Under the pieces are notes generated by a model that was not told the origin of the DNA, made no database searches, and saw only the letters and a list, made by a program, of their open reading frames with translations. Below, piece after piece: positions 8,401 through 49,109 of a stretch of 49,109 nucleotides of DNA. Made by a program: the position numbers and the translations under genes. Numbering within the stretch: position 1 is the first letter of the stretch; the number at the start of each line of letters is the position of its first letter. Location of the stretch: IMG/VR virus record IMGVR_UViG_3300037780_000133; one strand, written 5' to 3'. The DNA comes from a virus.

Positions 8401-9354
8401 ATCTCCGAATGTCTCACTCGGCCCGGGATTAATGACTTCGCGATAGCGGACCTGCACGTTTACCGACTGACTGGTGGGATTGCCTTTCTTGTTCGTGCCG
8501 CCCAAGCCCTGCGGGAATGCGAAAATCAGATCGCAATCAATGACGTCCGAAGCGGTTCGACGAACCTCCGGATCTGACTCGAGCAGAGTGGCGCCGACGC
8601 TCTCTGAGAAGGTTTGCCGGCTCGCCATTGTCGGATGAGGATCCGTTGGAACCAGCCGGCTTTGATAAACGACGCCATCAATATTCGCGAGCGGCGTGTC
8701 TCCGACTTTGCGATCTGTCACCTCAACATCGATGGGTCCGAGTTCTACGACGATGTAATAGTAGGTGTCGTCACCGCGGATTTCCGGGTATGCCCGCGCC
8801 CCCAAGCGAGGCACGATACGGTGGCGCCCCAGCACGGTTTGCACCGGCTGTAGAGGGAAAAGTTGGTTGCGGATGCCCTCTATAAAGTAGACCGGATCAG
8901 GCTGCTCTCCGAACTCGAAGCTGGGCGGCGGCACAATTGAGTTGATCGCCAACTGCCCGACCGTCGTCACGACAGCAGTTGTCAGGTAAGAAATGGCCGC
9001 AAACGCTTTCGTTCCTTCTGCTGCAAAAATCGCGGCCACCTCGGGGCCCAGATAGAACGCAGCTACAATGACCGCGATCGTCAGGACGGTTCGCAGAAGC
9101 TTATTACCATCATCACCACCACGCGGCAGCACAACGATCTGAACATGATCGCGCCCTGGCGTCTCCGCCCATAGCTCAGCGTCGATTGCTTCGCCATTGA
9201 TACTGGCTTCTGCATGATCAAGCGCGATCTGCTCAAAGCCGGCCATATCTACCAGCTCAGAGATTGGCGTGCCGGCCTCTGCCTGGATCAATCGCGGCGG
9301 CCGGTCGGAAAATGGATCGTCTTTGACGACGACGATTAACTCATCGTGGGACAT
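5437..9354 (-). CDS. Host-specificity / central tail-tip protein (gpJ- or GTA g15-like)
   Basis: A 1305-aa protein that is the last large gene of the tail module, following an NlpC/P60 gene. Confidence 0.75.
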   Translation of the reverse strand: MSHDELIVVVKDDPFSDRPPRLIQAEAGTPISELVDMAGFEQIALDHAEASINGEAIDAELWAETPGRDHVQIVVLPRGGDDGNKLLRTVLTIAVIVAAFYLGPEVAAIFAAEGTKAFAAISYLTTAVVTTVGQLAINSIVPPPSFEFGEQPDPVYFIEGIRNQLFPLQPVQTVLGRHRIVPRLGARAYPEIRGDDTYYYIVVELGPIDVEVTDRKVGDTPLANIDGVVYQSRLVPTDPHPTMASRQTFSESVGATLLESDPEVRRTASDVIDCDLIFAFPQGLGGTNKKGNPTSQSVNVQVRYREVINPGPSETFGDWRFASARTNAIYPEFRGFENLLALSGGGIGGDPNFGTSASFRFVEAKPAQPFFRQVGFSFPSEGTYEVEVLRISPDSNDAREFDDIVWQTILSKRDEPVINRDDVAYEVYRFKGTDETSGAIDELNMVVGRWIPAFPDSVLDQADLSGVTAADLSVTKVSSNPWEQSLWIMRNGFNAREAVTDDGFDWPSFAAAAKDARDRGLKFDYVVRQNVTVGDLGNLVASSGGEGRIYSYNNIWTAGVDRPIPAPSHVFRDGTARNISSTKSFPEEVHAFIVTFNDANNGWRTREVTIYVDGFTKATATKFERISIPGKTDWDDLHRAILQLYRNSRLQSETTNLEVPKDSLDNTLRPMGRISVASRVITQVQGSGILRGITTSSGQVTEVELDQELNQGPSYPGLALKWVNSDGTLSDPAPLVIPGSDGLSATATLDTPVAEAGGPVAGADYIIGPIGTDLFEGLLETAEDAGDEWIRLSLKSYAPARFDETGSVIPPYAIEPVLPLGSSPPTPVFVSAEASNFKITVTFTVPEGYPQPLREIRVWRAYAAPDDDPDPDALSVFEQLPSLGPEVRQLIDAPGQVGQRIVYRFQTVAVTGRTSPVMETPYITVADVLPFANNFAAVGGTETGSNGVINPVIEVTWDPDDDIAIQEAVIEARVVAKDVSDVRLPDASQPDYTPVTNIPAIKGRFTIRGVPPGVDMDVQMFYRGRRGEIGTAYEVRDVAVPDGAAGTTGSVDWGNIIGTPLELVDGRVGAGLDASGDLARPIPVATANSSGLLRYTGGALYTGSLDADRTAVNIAAGFIGQGDLASEDAASDRAYANFIVATSGIGYTNSEFNVNASDQVCGVDNIYREKAFATVSCDGSPVEIMFTAFFGEGAPNTSSEAPELTVSALIRRVEGTKIISQGSHVAVLRADAETGTSRSFGGTFRVVDDDPGGTPANPVNRTYQIFFATTRTSPKPPADFVAILNPNIWSGMRLTVHRENANNIT

Positions 9355-9745
9355 AGAAACCTGCGAGATTGAAGTGATAGTCTGTTCCGGGACCGAACTC
9401 GGCGAGCGTCGTTGCGGTCGTGGTGTTCACGTGCACCATGAGGTTTGGCGCCATCCAGAGCCCGACATGAACCGGAACTTGGTCCACTCGGAACAGCACG
9501 GCAGCACCAAGCTGCGGCACTTCGATTTCTTTGAACTTCCTAAACCCCCGCGAGAAATTCCGGAGCATGGTCATGCCCGGCTGCTCGGCAGTGTGACTGC
9601 GATAGGTTGGTTCGAACGCTCGATGCCAGCCGGCGACGCTTTGACCATCCAGGAGAAGCTGAAAGCAGTCCCAGTCTTGTTTCTCGTAAGGCCGACCCAG
9701 AACGCCGTTGCACCACGCCCAAAGCGCGTCTTTGATTTCGGTCAA
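9341..9745 (-). CDS. NlpC/P60-family tail-associated peptidase
   Basis: Size about 134 aa. DCFQLL (Cys) and HVGLW (His) motifs. The position is equivalent to gpK or GTA g14. Confidence 0.6.
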   Translation of the reverse strand: MTEIKDALWAWCNGVLGRPYEKQDWDCFQLLLDGQSVAGWHRAFEPTYRSHTAEQPGMTMLRNFSRGFRKFKEIEVPQLGAAVLFRVDQVPVHVGLWMAPNLMVHVNTTTATTLAEFGPGTDYHFNLAGFYVPR

Positions 9746-10215
9746 CCGAATGCACCCGGAAAATCAGCGGCATTGATTGTGATGCCCATGAACCGCCCTT
9801 CGGTAGGCGGTGGACCAAAACTTCCGGTGAGAAATCGAGCATCAGTTTCGAACAGTTTTAACTCGAGGCGCGTCCACTGATTTCGAACTGTATCAGGATC
9901 GTGAGCATAAACCTGCTCCAGTACCAAAGTCGCCTTTCCTGTGAGCGCTTTGACCACGTCTTTCACGCGCTCATCTACGTTGTCGATAGCCAGCTGAAGG
10001 ATCCCGCGGCGATCGCCGGCACGCGGCGGTTTTACCCGCAGGAAACCAGGCGCAAACACATCACCGCGCGAAGTGAAATTATGCCGCCAGTTCGCAACAC
10101 GCAGCTTTCCGTCAAGCGTCACGCCGTCCACGAAACCGGTGAGCGCGGCAATGTCCGGATGTTCGAGCGTGGCGAGAAACACATCGATATGAGTAGCTCC
10201 GCGAGCGGTGGTCAT
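9742..10215 (-). CDS. Minor tail protein, DUF1833-like
   Basis: About 157 aa, with motifs LEHPDI ... LQLAIDNVDERV. The gene has an ATGA-type overlap at each end. Confidence 0.5.
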   Translation of the reverse strand: MTTARGATHIDVFLATLEHPDIAALTGFVDGVTLDGKLRVANWRHNFTSRGDVFAPGFLRVKPPRAGDRRGILQLAIDNVDERVKDVVKALTGKATLVLEQVYAHDPDTVRNQWTRLELKLFETDARFLTGSFGPPPTEGRFMGITINAADFPGAFG

Positions 10216-10973
10216 GGGCGCGCCTCCAGATAACGCTCAAACCCGACACGCCAGTTTTCGCCAGCTCCGGATCCTCCAACGGTGTAACTGGACGTGAAGC
10301 AGCCTGTGTGCGTGCCGCCCGGGACTGGAAACAGAATATCCCGAACGCCCAATGCCGCCGTATCCTCAAACCACGTCTCGAACGTTTCGAGTTCTACCGG
10401 ACTCAATGTGAGGCTGACCCGCTCTCTCCCGCCTTCCAGCCTCGATACCAATACGCCTCCCGGTGAATTTCGGTCATCCGGACGCGCAACCTGGCTGACT
10501 GCCGACCGCTCATAGTCAGACGTTCTCGGACAACCAGGGACGCTCGCTGGCCAGGTTGCAGGTTGCGCCTTATGCAACGCCGCTAACGACGAAAGCGTAC
10601 CGGCACTTGGCGCCGGTGGGTCGGAACGCAATTCAAGCCTCACGCGTCGTCCGGTGCCAGACGACGCACGAACAACTGGCGCTCCGCGAAATCGTGCGGA
10701 GACAACGCGAGCGACAGGGTGATCAAACAGCGTCAGATCAAATGCATCGCGGCCAAGATTGAGGTCATCTTGCCGCCAGTTCTCAAACGCGGCGTAAGCG
10801 GTTTCTGTCAAAATCAGTTCGCCGACGATGTTTTGGGCACGGCTCGCCGCCCAGAGATTTCTGAGGGGCGGGCCAACCGCTACTTCGGAGCGCCGAATGA
10901 CGTCTTCCGGAGCGCGCTGATAGGTGTCTTTTACGAATGCGTTGGGTACGCCCGCCGGCCACGCAATAGCCAT
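10212..10973 (-). CDS. Minor or distal tail protein
   Basis: It lies immediately downstream of the tape measure gene and overlaps the genes on both sides. Confidence 0.5.
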   Translation of the reverse strand: MAIAWPAGVPNAFVKDTYQRAPEDVIRRSEVAVGPPLRNLWAASRAQNIVGELILTETAYAAFENWRQDDLNLGRDAFDLTLFDHPVARVVSARFRGAPVVRASSGTGRRVRLELRSDPPAPSAGTLSSLAALHKAQPATWPASVPGCPRTSDYERSAVSQVARPDDRNSPGGVLVSRLEGGRERVSLTLSPVELETFETWFEDTAALGVRDILFPVPGGTHTGCFTSSYTVGGSGAGENWRVGFERYLEARP

Positions 10974-44860: not shown

Positions 44861-45126
44861 TCACGCCGGTGGAACACTGCGACTTAACCCGCAAAAACTT
44901 CGTCATTGCGCTTAACATGGCAGTGACTGAAGCGCGCCTTCAGCAGGGACTGACCCTCGCTGACATTGCCGCAAGGATCGACTGGACAGCGCAAAAGCTC
45001 GATGAGGCGCTAACCTACCCGTCCAATCTCAACATGGAACAAATCTCCCTGATCTGCATCGCCCTGCAGCAGGAAGTGAAATTCACGATGGATGACGCGG
45101 CAGAGCAGGAGGTTGCGGCGGAATGA
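44857..45126 (+). CDS. HTH-like small protein
   Basis: The segment QQGLTLADIAARIDWTAQKLDEAL resembles an XRE-type HTH. Confidence 0.45.
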   Translation: MITPVEHCDLTRKNFVIALNMAVTEARLQQGLTLADIAARIDWTAQKLDEALTYPSNLNMEQISLICIALQQEVKFTMDDAAEQEVAAE

Positions 45127-45512
45127 CTGAATTTCCTTGGGAGCCCGCGGTTCGAACCGCCTACAACCGACACCGCAACATGTGGGCCATGCCGGCGTGG
45201 GACGACCTGCCCCTCGAAATGCGCCTCGCTTACATCGCGACCACTCACACATTTTTGGAAGAGATGGGCCGCCCGCAGTCGATCAAGACGGGGCGTTTAA
45301 GCCTCCAGGAGATATTCCTGCGCCGTCCGCCTGTATCCCTCAAAGGCAAAGGCAAAATATCCGAATTCAACACAACTGACGAAACTGGATTTGATTGGGA
45401 ATATCGTCGCGAAGATCAAGTCTGGGAGCACGTTCGAACAGATCGCCTGATCGAGCTGCTACCTATCGTCGATCTCAAATACTATCTCCAAAAAATTGCA
45501 GGCGAAGAATGA
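45123..45512 (+). CDS. Hypothetical protein
   Basis: ATGA-coupled ORF. Confidence 0.45.
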   Translation: MTEFPWEPAVRTAYNRHRNMWAMPAWDDLPLEMRLAYIATTHTFLEEMGRPQSIKTGRLSLQEIFLRRPPVSLKGKGKISEFNTTDETGFDWEYRREDQVWEHVRTDRLIELLPIVDLKYYLQKIAGEE

Positions 45513-45979
45513 CCGACCTCATTGAAAAACTGCAATCAGCCGAAGGCCCCAGCCGCGAATTGGACGCGGAAATTTTCGAGTATCTCGGTTATCATGTGAA
45601 GCGCCTGAGCACGTTCCCGATCACCGGTGCATTTCTGGCCTATCCGCCTGCAGGACCTGAAGTCTGCCGCCCAGCCGATCTTTCGGTTACCTCGACAGTC
45701 GGTGCCGCGCTCTCACTCGTAGCCAGCGAGTTGCCTGGCTGGGGATGGCGCATTGGATCCTGCCATCTTTCAGACGATGCGCTTTTGTTTCCCGACTTCA
45801 ATTGCCCCGAGCATGGCGCACGACTGAAAGCCGAGCTTGGCGCCTTCGATGCCGGCGATTGGCGAGATACGGGGATTGATATTGATCTCCGCCCGCCCGG
45901 CCGAATCGCGATCGCGATCATGATCGCGCTTATCGAAGTCAAACAGCGCCTCAAATCATTGGGGGATGCTGCCCAATGA
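45509..45979 (+). CDS. Hypothetical protein
   Basis: ATGA-coupled ORF with an N-terminal LQSAEGPSRELDAEIFEYLG motif. Confidence 0.45.
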   Translation: MTDLIEKLQSAEGPSRELDAEIFEYLGYHVKRLSTFPITGAFLAYPPAGPEVCRPADLSVTSTVGAALSLVASELPGWGWRIGSCHLSDDALLFPDFNCPEHGARLKAELGAFDAGDWRDTGIDIDLRPPGRIAIAIMIALIEVKQRLKSLGDAAQ

Positions 45980-46203
45980 ACCGAGCGATGCAGAAATCCG
46001 CCCGCCAACAAGCCAAAGGCAAAACCGGCCACCAACGAAAATTGATGGCGCGGGAGGCGGTTATCGATGCGTTAGAAGGGGATGCCGATGGAATGCTCGC
46101 TGAATGGGTGATGAAAACATACGAACAGCATCTGCTCATTCGCGGTATCGGATTGATGACGCTATCTGAATGGTTGGCACAGGAATCGGGGGCCGATGAA
46201 TGA
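45976..46203 (+). CDS. Hypothetical small protein
   Basis: ATGA-coupled ORF. Confidence 0.4.
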   Translation: MNRAMQKSARQQAKGKTGHQRKLMAREAVIDALEGDADGMLAEWVMKTYEQHLLIRGIGLMTLSEWLAQESGADE

Positions 46204-46388
46204 CCGAACTCCTGGACGATATCGATTCAGCAGACGCAGAGACTTGCGAAATGTGCGCCGGGCAGGGTGTTTGCCCAGAATGCGACGGCGGTGAACTAGG
46301 CGAGCCGCACTGTGATCTCTGCGATGGTTGGGGAGAATGTCCGGCGTGCGACGGCCAAGGCGAGATCATGGGAGATGGCTTCAGATGA
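46200..46388 (+). CDS. Mini-protein made of DnaJ-type CxxCxGxG zinc-finger repeats
   Basis: CEMCAGQG, CPECDGG, CDLCDGWG and CPACDGQG occur within 62 aa. Confidence 0.55.
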   Translation: MTELLDDIDSADAETCEMCAGQGVCPECDGGELGEPHCDLCDGWGECPACDGQGEIMGDGFR

Positions 46389-46708
46389 CCCGCGGCGCAT
46401 CCATCCACGACACCGAACTTCTGGCGCTTCCGGAGTTCCAGGGATTCGGTCTGCGTTACATTCGTGACATCCTAGACCGGACTCCCCGGTCATGTTTAAG
46501 AAAAGGCCGATCTCGATACCTGCAGCCACACCACATAAACAAGCTGCTCGAGGTCCTGGAGGAAGAACCATGCCGCTTGAACTCAAACCGCCGGGTGACC
46601 GCGCGAAGTACGCAAACTATTACATCCGAGGGACGCACGAAGCCACGGGAAGACGTGTGGAAACAAGCACTGGAACGTGCAACAGAGCACTCGCGTACCG
46701 GAAACTAA
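46385..46708 (+). CDS. Hypothetical protein upstream of int; excisionase candidate by position. The 3' part overlaps int by about 139 nt.
   Basis: ATGA-coupled start at 46385. The ORF continues into int out of frame, so its true extent is uncertain. Confidence 0.3.
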   Translation: MTRGASIHDTELLALPEFQGFGLRYIRDILDRTPRSCLRKGRSRYLQPHHINKLLEVLEEEPCRLNSNRRVTARSTQTITSEGRTKPREDVWKQALERATEHSRTGN

Positions 46709-47667
46709 TTGAGCTGATCGAAAAGCTCGATCATGAGGCCATGTATGGCCCGCAAACCACCTTCGCTGAAGCCGCGATTAAGTACATGAAAGCCATTCCG
46801 CGGGGCGGTCGATATCTGAAACCGATCCTTCTGCATTTGGGCCCGGACGCGCTGTGCGAAGAGGTCACCCCACAAGTCATCGAGGCCATGGCCTGGGCAC
46901 TTTATCCGAATGCCAAACCTCAAACTCAACATCGCCAGGTGGTGACGCCGACGAACGCCGTGCTCAACTATGAGCGCCGCGGCGGTCCGCGCAAAAAGCT
47001 TGTCGACAATCAGCGGATCCGGTGGCTGACCCCTGAAGAAGCTGAACGCCTGATTGAATGCGCCCAGATGGTTGATCGCGACAGCGACAAGCGCGCGATC
47101 GGCTATGGCTGCGAGCGCCTGGTTCTGACCTTGCTCGGGACTGGTTGCCGCACCCGCGAGCTGATCAAAGCCCAGGTCGACAATATCAACTCACCGACGC
47201 GCCAGCTCTATATTGGGCCGTCGAAAAATGGCGATGCTCGATGGATCCCGGTTGAGGCCTCGCGCGCCTTTCCAGCGCTCACCAGCAATTGCCCGGACGC
47301 CGGCGGATTGTTTCGCACACCGCGGGGCATTGAATACAAGATCCGCGAACATGGCGGCGGGCAGTTTGCCGGCATCTTCAACAAGGCGCGCGAACTGGCC
47401 GGCTTTGACAGTGAAGGCGAAAATGCCGTCACCCCGCACGTTCTGCGCCACACCTGGGCGACCTGGTATTATGCCGCCACCGGTCACAATCTGACCTGGC
47501 TGATGGAACATGGCGGCTGGCGCAAACCCGACATGGCGCTGCGCTACACCAAGCTCGCGCCGGCCGACCTCGCGCAGCGCGTTCGCGATCACGGTTGGAG
47601 CTTTGTCAATCCAGCGCTCCAGAACCAGACCCCAGCCCAGCAACCCAAGCTCAAGATTATGAAATGA
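46570..47667 (+). CDS. int: Tyrosine integrase
   Basis: GGAGGA ribosome-binding site. The N-terminus MPLELKPP ... YYIRG is typical of alphaproteobacterial phage integrases. Catalytic motifs are TGCRTRE, HVLRHTWATW and LRYTKL. Confidence 0.9.
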   Translation: MPLELKPPGDRAKYANYYIRGTHEATGRRVETSTGTCNRALAYRKLIELIEKLDHEAMYGPQTTFAEAAIKYMKAIPRGGRYLKPILLHLGPDALCEEVTPQVIEAMAWALYPNAKPQTQHRQVVTPTNAVLNYERRGGPRKKLVDNQRIRWLTPEEAERLIECAQMVDRDSDKRAIGYGCERLVLTLLGTGCRTRELIKAQVDNINSPTRQLYIGPSKNGDARWIPVEASRAFPALTSNCPDAGGLFRTPRGIEYKIREHGGGQFAGIFNKARELAGFDSEGENAVTPHVLRHTWATWYYAATGHNLTWLMEHGGWRKPDMALRYTKLAPADLAQRVRDHGWSFVNPALQNQTPAQQPKLKIMK

Positions 47668-48092
47668 CCGCACTTTCTCCCGCTATTTTGTTCATCCAGG
47701 TTGAGCGCACCTATTCTGACGGCAATCGCCAAACCGAGTTATTGTGTACGCGTTTTGACGTTCTTGATGCGGTCATCATTGTCGAGGGCCTAGATTATTT
47801 CAGCCGCGAGTTCGCGGACGAAGATGAGCCGTCCCATGAAACCAAGATTTTGAACATATCATCGGTTCCGGATCCGTACCCAGAGGACGCAAATTACTTC
47901 AACGCGCTTGAAGACAGAGTGCCCTCGCTGGAGTCGGAATTGTTTATTAGAGGAACCGATATTGTCGTGAATCAATATCGGTCCACGCCGGGTTACGAGT
48001 CGCTCGCGGACGATATCGAGACCATGTTTCGCAACCAGTATCCGGATTATATGGCCCGCCGAGATGCAGAGAAGGCGGGAGCATCCATATGA
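47664..48092 (+). CDS. Hypothetical acidic protein
   Basis: ATGA overlap with the int stop. Confidence 0.45.
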   Translation: MTALSPAILFIQVERTYSDGNRQTELLCTRFDVLDAVIIVEGLDYFSREFADEDEPSHETKILNISSVPDPYPEDANYFNALEDRVPSLESELFIRGTDIVVNQYRSTPGYESLADDIETMFRNQYPDYMARRDAEKAGASI

Positions 48093-48141
48093 CCCATCAA
48101 TCACTGTCCGAATACGCAAAACCTAAAATGAGGATCCTGAA

Positions 48142-48378
48142 ATGACCGAACTCGCGACCGACCGCGCCTCACAGCGGCAGCTTAAAACCCATGCAGCGGT
48201 GATCGAGTTCCTGCGCGGCCAGCTTAGAGCGCTGGAGTCCGGGCAACTGCTTGGCCTGGAATACGCGTTAAAGGACCAGGTTGAGGCAAGCCCAACTGGC
48301 AATTTGTTGGGGCCCGTCGCCTTTCGAGACCTTTCAATAACCGCCGTGCGTCTGATGCCGGAAGAAATCGAGGATTAG
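48142..48378 (+). CDS. Hypothetical protein
   Basis: ORF with AGGA upstream. Confidence 0.4.
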   Translation: MTELATDRASQRQLKTHAAVIEFLRGQLRALESGQLLGLEYALKDQVEASPTGNLLGPVAFRDLSITAVRLMPEEIED

Positions 48379-48380
48379 AA

Positions 48381-49001
48381 ATGACCGACGAGCTTCAGGA
48401 ACTGCCTTCAGACGCGGAAGAGTTTTGCGCAGAATTGCCCGTGCGGGCCCACCGAGCTTTGAGAGATAATAATGTCCAAACGTGGGAAGAGGCGGCCGCG
48501 ATCAGTGAGAAAGTTTGGCTGAACACACCAAATTTCGGGCGCAAGGCGCTCAATGATTTGAAAGCGGCGCTGGCCAAGCGTGGGCTGTATACTCCGGAGG
48601 ATCTGAGTAAAGACATCGCCTACGCCGCAGGCCTGCGGGATAATCGCAAACTCTATCACTCGACCTTGATCAATTTTGCGTTCGCCTTCGCGGGTTTGCG
48701 CGAGAGCGAGATCATGATGTCAGGCACGCTGCACGGCGAAGAAACCCGCTTTTATCCACCGAGGCTTTATATCAGCCGCAAGGCGGCCGAGCTGCTGCGC
48801 ACACATCCGGAGCTTCGAGCGCTCGATATCCAGGACGCAGATGCGATCGCTTTTGACCCGAACAAGCGAACGGATCCGGAACGTCGAGCCGAGATTGTGG
48901 AGCAACTCTCCGCCTCAGGGGCAGGGGCCCGAGTAGCTGTAATCATTGAGAAATTTGCCGCCCAGGCCGGGACGTCGAATGAAGAGCTGCGGAAGAACTA
49001 G
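48381..49001 (+). CDS. Protein with an N-terminal RNA polymerase alpha-subunit C-terminal-domain-like (HhH) module
   Basis: ELPVRAHRALRDNNVQTWEEAAAISEKVWLNTPNFGRKALNDLKAALAKRGL aligns by eye with the E. coli alpha-CTD sequence [51 protein letters not shown]. Confidence 0.6.
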   Translation: MTDELQELPSDAEEFCAELPVRAHRALRDNNVQTWEEAAAISEKVWLNTPNFGRKALNDLKAALAKRGLYTPEDLSKDIAYAAGLRDNRKLYHSTLINFAFAFAGLRESEIMMSGTLHGEETRFYPPRLYISRKAAELLRTHPELRALDIQDADAIAFDPNKRTDPERRAEIVEQLSASGAGARVAVIIEKFAAQAGTSNEELRKN

Positions 49002-49109
49002 GGAAGAGCCGAACGGCGTTCGGTTTTAAATGAGAAGAATCAGGGGACTAGCTGAAATGCCTGACACCTTAGCAGGGGAGCGCCTTCAGCCACTCGGCCA
49101 CCTCTCCGC
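48983..49109. repeat. Terminal direct repeat, identical to 1..127
   Basis: Identical 127-bp string at both ends of the window. Confidence 0.95.

Follow-up and report, generated by a model that had tools for sequence, protein, structure and literature searches.

An alpha-CTD-like domain joined to an orphan C-terminal domain in a putative accessory protein of a temperate Henriciella phage

The open reading frame at 48381-49001 on the plus strand of a viral DNA is best read as the gene for an accessory protein of a temperate Henriciella phage. The protein consists of two separable modules, an N-terminal domain that resembles the C-terminal domain of the RNA polymerase alpha subunit (alpha-CTD), and an orphan C-terminal domain (C-dom). 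With a probability that we put at about 40%, the free alpha-CTD head would bind the minor groove of AT-rich, UP-like DNA, or would engage a factor through the same surface, and would in this way either bring C-dom to its target or compete with the alpha-CTD of the polymerase. Unless a chromosome or contig is named, coordinates refer to the window, i.e. the whole stretch of 49,109 nucleotides that was analyzed (IMG/VR record IMGVR_UViG_3300037780_000133).

The gene (coordinates including the stop codon) encodes 206 amino acids and follows, at a distance of about 8 nt, a Shine-Dalgarno-like GAGGA motif. The alpha-CTD-like domain was assigned to residues 12-72 (48414-48596, plus strand) by Pfam, by sequence matches to the PDB and by structural matches, and includes the peptide under study (residues 18-70). 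It is followed by an acidic linker (residues 73-87, 48597-48641, plus strand) with a pI of 4.4 and a pLDDT of 33-46 in the AF2 model, the length of which differs among homologues. The orphan C-dom comprises residues 88-192 (48642-48956, plus strand) and is characterized by the conserved motifs TLINxALAF, RFxPPRLYISRxAAE and DxQDxDAIAFDP. The calculated pI is 8.2 for the N-terminal domain, compared to 6.8 for the alpha-CTD of the Henriciella host, and about 7, i.e. near neutral, for C-dom.

The original prediction had placed an alpha-CTD-like helix-hairpin-helix domain in the phage protein and had left the remaining roughly 135 residues unassigned. Both statements were upheld, the first by profile, PDB sequence and structure matches. 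The RNA_pol_A_CTD profile of Pfam (PF03118) matched residues 18-65 over profile positions 19-66 of 67, with an E-value of 1e-7 and a score of 32 bits against a gathering cut-off of 23.8. In NCBIfam, nine models were matched at E<=0.1, eight of them RpoA models. These eight equivalog models were matched solely via their C-terminal ~55 positions, and the full-length RpoA models TIGR02027 and NF003513 scored 24-35 bits, which is below their cut-offs of 228-302. In a phmmer query against the PDB, the Caulobacter alpha-CTD came out on top (9zum, E 2.5e-6), followed by 7ye1 (E 3e-5) and then by dozens of RpoA chains.

Structure prediction led to the same assignment. An AF2 model of the protein, built from seven family members, recovered the alpha-CTD fold, with a pLDDT of 75-86 for residues 10-70. 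Foldseek superimposed the modeled N-terminal domain on 9zum with an rmsd of 0.8-0.9 Å over 54 residues (probability 1.00, 41% identity). A structural search of 48,161 PDB representatives, which was independent of Foldseek, returned alpha-CTDs at ranks 1-6 (Z 6.4-8.8), and placed the Rad51 N-terminal domain, NusA AR and SAM domains below them. The resemblance to the alpha-CTD is far beyond chance, and the phage protein thus begins with a true domain of this type.

The phage protein shares with the alpha-CTD of RpoA (PF03118; PDB 9zum, 7ye1, 1lb2, 1z3e) the profile, the compact helix-hairpin-helix fold, the contact positions and the flexible linker. Unlike RpoA, however, it does not contain the alpha N-terminal assembly domain, carries its alpha-CTD domain at the N-terminus, and is fused to an unrelated orphan domain. 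Without an assembly domain the protein cannot be a polymerase subunit, and it belongs to the alpha-CTD domain family, not to RpoA; the host genome (L003) encodes its own rpoA. Alpha-CTD-like domains outside RpoA are also found in the stand-alone family NF005841 (PRK07758, ~95 aa) and in a cluster of free alpha-CTD-like proteins (P0008, 113 aa), both of which are without C-dom. The phage protein scored 19.1 bits against the NF005841 cut-off of 115, and is therefore not a member of that family. It is 40% identical to the P0008 cluster over the domain.

In the Caulobacter alpha-CTD, residues R266, N269, N295 and K299 make the main contacts with AT-rich DNA, in its narrowed minor groove, R298 is also named, and the activator DriD occupies N295, R298 and K299 (PMC13004042). 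The phmmer register, in which 244 is added to a residue number of the phage protein to obtain the Caulobacter number and 243 to obtain the E. coli number, equates the set R266, N269, N295, R298 and K299 with R22, R25, N51, R54 and K55. Four of these five residues (R22, N51, R54 and K55) are kept, the exception being R25 at the N269 position. In E. coli numbering, E18, R22, N51, G53, R54 and K55 correspond to E261, R265, N294, G296, K297 and K298, respectively. Within the E. coli "265 determinant" (R265, N268, N294, G296, K298, S299), N268 is replaced by R25 and S299 by A56.

The comparison of homologues gave a similar picture. R22 and the PNFG(R/K)K motif are present in all four fused homologues, including the one with the most diverged N-terminal domain (G001 copy 2), and E18 is conserved in all homologues, whereas the N268/N269 position varies and can be R, Q, N or E. 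Because the contact residues are kept, the surface for DNA and activators appears largely intact, and we infer that the domain may bind DNA.

The same residues also bear on a rather unlikely alternative, namely that the head serves as a protein decoy or adaptor and does not bind DNA. It would then capture a protein that docks on the alpha-CTD, such as an activator of the host or of the phage, or a WYL-type regulator like DriD, and either titrate it or deliver it to C-dom. The positions contacted by DriD in Caulobacter (PMC13004042) are kept in the phage protein, E18 does not vary, and the position that reads bases, N268/N269, does; all of this would fit a protein ligand. However, the CAP-type "287 determinant" is not conserved, with K44 and V45 in place of V287 and E288, and the residues that are kept also serve DNA binding. 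Since the two functions draw on the same residues, their conservation cannot separate a decoy from a DNA-binding domain.

C-dom did not match anything in Pfam, PHROGs, NCBIfam or PADLOC, and nothing below E 0.05 was found in a profile search of the PDB. AF2 prediction for C-dom alone, based on the C-dom alignment, yielded a weak model (pLDDT 57.7). A wide VIA-align search for structural neighbours of C-dom with a query model of pLDDT ~58 found none above noise (best Z 3.8), weak rows to winged-helix regulators were at noise level (Z 3.5-3.6), and the ESM Atlas contributed only sub-threshold leads. An AbrB/MazE-like (SpoVT-AbrB) fold was considered and rejected: the idea came from the predicted strand-strand-helix-strand order around PPRLYISRKAAELL, the sole resemblance in a low-confidence model, and hhalign assigned it a probability of 0.1-0.3% against 10 PF04014 domains from related genomes. 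As far as these models allow a judgment, C-dom has no recognisable fold, which is not the same as having a new fold.

A search with the C-dom profile among 1.84 billion cluster representatives identified five real clusters; three weaker, multi-stretch matches in proteins of 493-669 aa look spurious. In some clusters, C-dom was preceded by just a short leader (P0009, 131 aa; P0010, 114 aa; P0006, 155 aa), and in another one (P0007) it was directly fused behind a different N-terminal module, which resembles the product of orf86, a gene of the related loci described below.

Full-length homologues, with 64-72% identity, are few and were found in two Henriciella MAG chromosomes, OZ245793 (two copies) and OZ243114. 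Of 262 genomes from the host family, 2 contain C-dom; at the level of the genus the count is 2 of 72. Relatives were found neither by tblastn in 50,697 phage records, nor by scans of IMG/VR in which the protein and then the C-dom alignment served as query, nor in PHROGs. Including the window, five elements could be compared. In G001 (OZ245793), the fusion gene of copy 1 starts at the int stop codon and is followed by the att core, and in copy 2 an orf142-like gene lies between int and the fusion gene, which again precedes the att core. In G087 the order is int, orf119, orf111, an orf86-like gene, the fusion gene and the att core. The metagenome contig SPJL01038363 (48,297 bp; L012) contains int, orf94, a gene for a 162-aa protein, orf86, a gene for C-dom alone and the att core. 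The 162-aa protein has a degenerate alpha-CTD at its N-terminus (PF03118 E 0.0046, below the cut-off) and a different C-terminal part. The stretch 9229-10321 of this contig (SPJL01038363.1) can be regarded as a split version of the module, with the alpha-CTD-like gene, orf86 and C-dom separate.

An additional variant was seen in a sequencing run of a 2024 sample ("organism A"; X12). This run contains an element of about 93% similarity in which the stretch corresponding to 48115-48729 is replaced by about 316 unlike bases, the stretch 48729-49092 (the C-dom half) is kept, and 561 extra bases follow the int stop codon. The replaced stretch corresponds to orf78 and the alpha-CTD half of the gene.

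What stays constant across the family is C-dom, to which the alpha-CTD was added as a head in the Henriciella group. C-dom is found alone, in a split arrangement or with another head, and the alpha-CTD can therefore be described as an accreted head on a mobile C-dom. The occurrence of C-dom in relatives without a covalently attached alpha-CTD also speaks against the DNA-binding reading to some extent, since the head may be dispensable. The two halves of the fusion protein have different histories, and in G001 copy 2 the N-terminal domain differs from its homologues with a dN of 0.42-0.54, compared to 0.09-0.17 for C-dom.

For both domains, dN/dS was 0.11-0.32, with synonymous divergence being saturated, and the reading frame is intact in every copy of the fusion gene. 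Purifying selection thus acts on both halves, which argues for a working protein. It also argues against the very improbable possibility that the gene is a decaying, functionless relic of a captured rpoA fragment, which would be in line with the tiny size and patchy distribution of the family (2 of 262 host-family genomes). Moreover, the alpha-CTD of the phage is only 39-41% identical to that of the host, a value that rules out its recent acquisition from the rpoA of the host.

Bases 1-127 of the window are an exact repeat of 48983-49109. The contig is therefore circular, and we read the 127-bp terminal repeat as an assembly overlap, so that the true length would be 48,982 bp. A pond metagenome run carries the element as a contig of 48,996 bp at a depth of 53. 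The gene was expected to be the last one before a terminator and attP, and this expectation was borne out. Downstream of the stop codon lies a candidate intrinsic terminator (49005-49031, plus strand), which consists of a hairpin with a 10-bp stem (-11.9 kcal/mol, with a z-score of only -1.2 for the RNA fold) followed by the U-run UUUUAAAU. Then comes the 5' half of a tRNA-Ser gene, the 41-nt attP core (49067-49107, minus strand), which is the same as 85-125 via the circular overlap. The exact 41-nt tRNA-Ser motif adjoins the C-dom gene in all related elements (L004, L005, L007, L012), and in the five elements the att core is convergent with the C-dom gene and begins 12-80 nt after its stop codon. 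Many unrelated tRNA-Ser contigs match the window in this stretch only. In G001 copy 1 and G087, the stop codon and the tRNA fragment are 12 nt apart, without a separate terminator.

On its other side, the module is delimited by a tyrosine integrase gene (46570-47667, plus strand; Pfam Phage_integrase E 2e-15, phrog_1). The listed open reading frame begins at 46492, and the methionine of MPLELK is the likely start. Integrase homologues with 77-98% identity are encoded upstream of every C-dom gene. A candidate excisionase-like small open reading frame (46385-46708, plus strand) was noted on the basis of its sequence pattern and of its conservation in L012 only. It had no Pfam or PHROG match, and both in the window and in L012 (7611-7934) it overlaps the start of int by ~140 nt in another frame. 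The G001 chromosome (L004, L005) carries two modules of int, C-dom and tRNA-Ser half, at about 3,532,321 and 3,579,338, i.e. 47,017 bp apart and in the same orientation, which look like a tandem of two related prophages at a single tRNA-Ser site. The identity of their integrases to that of the window is 82% and 98%.

The fixed place of the gene beside int and att could point to a role in recombination, and in this respect it weighs against the DNA-binding reading given above. As an accessory or architectural factor, the protein would bind the AT-rich arm DNA of attP, attL or attR, or Int itself, and modulate integration or excision. In all five elements, the series of genes that follows the related integrase ends with the C-dom gene, which lies 12-80 nt from the att core and in one case (G001 copy 1) starts at the int stop codon. 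Among the 72 genus genomes the integrase lineage and C-dom co-occur exactly: each is represented by three genes, which lie in the same two genomes and at the same three places. However, all of these instances stem from a single integrase lineage, so that common ancestry accounts for the synteny. The directionality factors known so far are small proteins of the winged-helix or HTH type. The phage protein had no match to Xis, HTH_17 or Cox-type families in Pfam, PHROG or NCBIfam, its C-dom is not basic, and a separate Xis-like open reading frame is present upstream of int. We therefore regard a recombination factor as unlikely.

Between integrase and fusion gene, the window contains two further genes on the plus strand. 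The ATG of orf142 (47664-48092) overlaps the int stop codon (ATGA). This gene belongs to the variable cargo, has no family match, and has a homologue only in G001 copy 2. After a gap of 50 nt it is followed by orf78 (48142-48378), which ends 2 nt before the alpha-CTD gene, and for which no family match in Pfam, PHROG or PADLOC and no homologue in the related loci was found. The interval between int and C-dom (47664-48378 in the window, 9027-9983 in L007, 8890-9974 in L012) contains different orphan genes in each element and thus appears as a hypervariable cargo slot. None of these orphan genes had a match in Pfam, PHROG or PADLOC.

It had also been suggested, from the position of the gene, that it could be expressed from the prophage. 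Our analysis did not support this suggestion. The region 38.6-49.0 kb is a dense array of small plus-strand genes that ends with the xis-like open reading frame, int, orf142, orf78 and the alpha-CTD gene, with the close spacing between these genes noted above. A consensus scan found no plus-strand promoter in 45000-49109, which is weak evidence as the scan is tuned to the sigma-70 consensus, and the terminator-like sites on the plus strand of the array are weak and lie inside genes. Since the gene closes a long rightward array, in which it follows int in tight translational packing, its co-expression with xis and int from an early rightward operon is likelier than expression from the resting prophage. 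The layout resembles that of the lambda pL operon, in which int is the distal gene of the array, a likeness that favours joint expression with int following infection or induction. In the lysogen, the host tRNA-Ser promoter would be predicted to read antisense into the alpha-CTD gene, because the att core keeps only the 5' half of the tRNA, which faces the gene.

These observations also apply to the quite unlikely possibility that the gene is a "moron" of lysogenic conversion, which would provide defence or superinfection exclusion when expressed from the prophage, or counter-defence during infection. The hypervariable orphan cargo between int and att (orf142, orf78, orf94, orf86, orf119, orf111) would be a natural setting for such a gene, and the different histories of the two domains, as illustrated by the divergence of G001 copy 2 and by the X12 variant, would be in agreement with it. 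However, neither the protein nor its cassette neighbours matched PADLOC-DB 2.0 at E<=1. The sigma-70 consensus scan did not detect a promoter of its own, the coupling to the upstream genes is tight, and the predicted antisense reading from the host tRNA-Ser promoter would work against expression in the lysogen.

We therefore return to the reading in which the alpha-CTD head binds AT-rich DNA or a factor on the same surface. This reading builds on the identity of the domain, the kept contacts, the pI of the N-terminal domain, purifying selection, modularity and the packing in an operon; the lack of conservation at the N268/N269 position and the alanine in place of S299 argue against it, as do the near-neutral pI of C-dom and its want of a recognisable fold. 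The protein would be produced along with Xis and Int, from the distal part of the long early operon that runs rightward. The flexible acidic linker would join the head to C-dom, and the head would occupy the minor groove of AT-rich, UP-like DNA, or associate with a factor for which the same surface of the head is the docking site. As a result, C-dom would be brought to such sites, or the alpha-CTD of the host polymerase would be outcompeted. Competition for UP elements or activators, and the tethering of another activity to promoter DNA, both of which the original prediction had put forward, appear plausible in the light of the sequence comparisons.

A more specific, and improbable, version of this idea is that the protein mimics an alpha dimer free of polymerase. 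C-dom would oligomerize and display at least two alpha-CTD heads on flexible linkers, and these would occupy UP elements or alpha-CTD-dependent activators as the early operon fires. Host transcription that depends on UP elements or activators would thereby be shut down or redirected, and the separate C-dom and alpha-CTD-like proteins of the relatives would be a split form of the same device.

The alpha-CTD is the hub of the polymerase for UP-element DNA and many activators, and both its modification and the blocking of its use by phages are known. The protein gp67 of Staphylococcus phage G1 binds region 4 of sigma and is not known to have an alpha-CTD fold. This early protein, which blocks the use of the alpha-CTD and UP elements (PMC3694059) and is thus directed against UP-element-dependent transcription, may be a possible analogy, and of outcome only. 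To our knowledge, a phage that deploys a free alpha-CTD of its own has not been described.

The presence of the domain in phages has already been annotated, and by automatic annotation free copies of it are widespread in phage proteins. In the BFVD, the model of the N-terminal domain matched (probability 1.00, rmsd about 1 Å over the domain) at least a dozen phage proteins, 111-288 aa in length and labelled "RNA polymerase, alpha subunit, C-terminal" in UniProt, among them A0A2P1JY10 of Rhodococcus phage Finch and several uncultured Caudovirales entries. Like the protein described here, they are small and combine one alpha-CTD-like domain with other sequence. In contrast, no sequence relationship to them was detected outside the alpha-CTD by tblastn against the 50,697 phage records or in PHROGs, and the C-dom partner and the fixed position between int and att are specific for the Henriciella group. 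A functional study of phage proteins with an alpha-CTD domain was not found in the searchable literature, where absence is not proof. The product of the open reading frame at 48381-49001 is a new architectural variant in a widespread, unstudied class.

The C-dom family offers a compact test case for this class, as it combines a protein of two clear-cut modules, variants in which these are naturally split or unfused, and a close structural reference in the form of the Caulobacter alpha-CTD on AT-rich DNA. If it is true that the protein competes with the polymerase for UP elements or activators, this would be a novel way for a phage to control transcription in its host.
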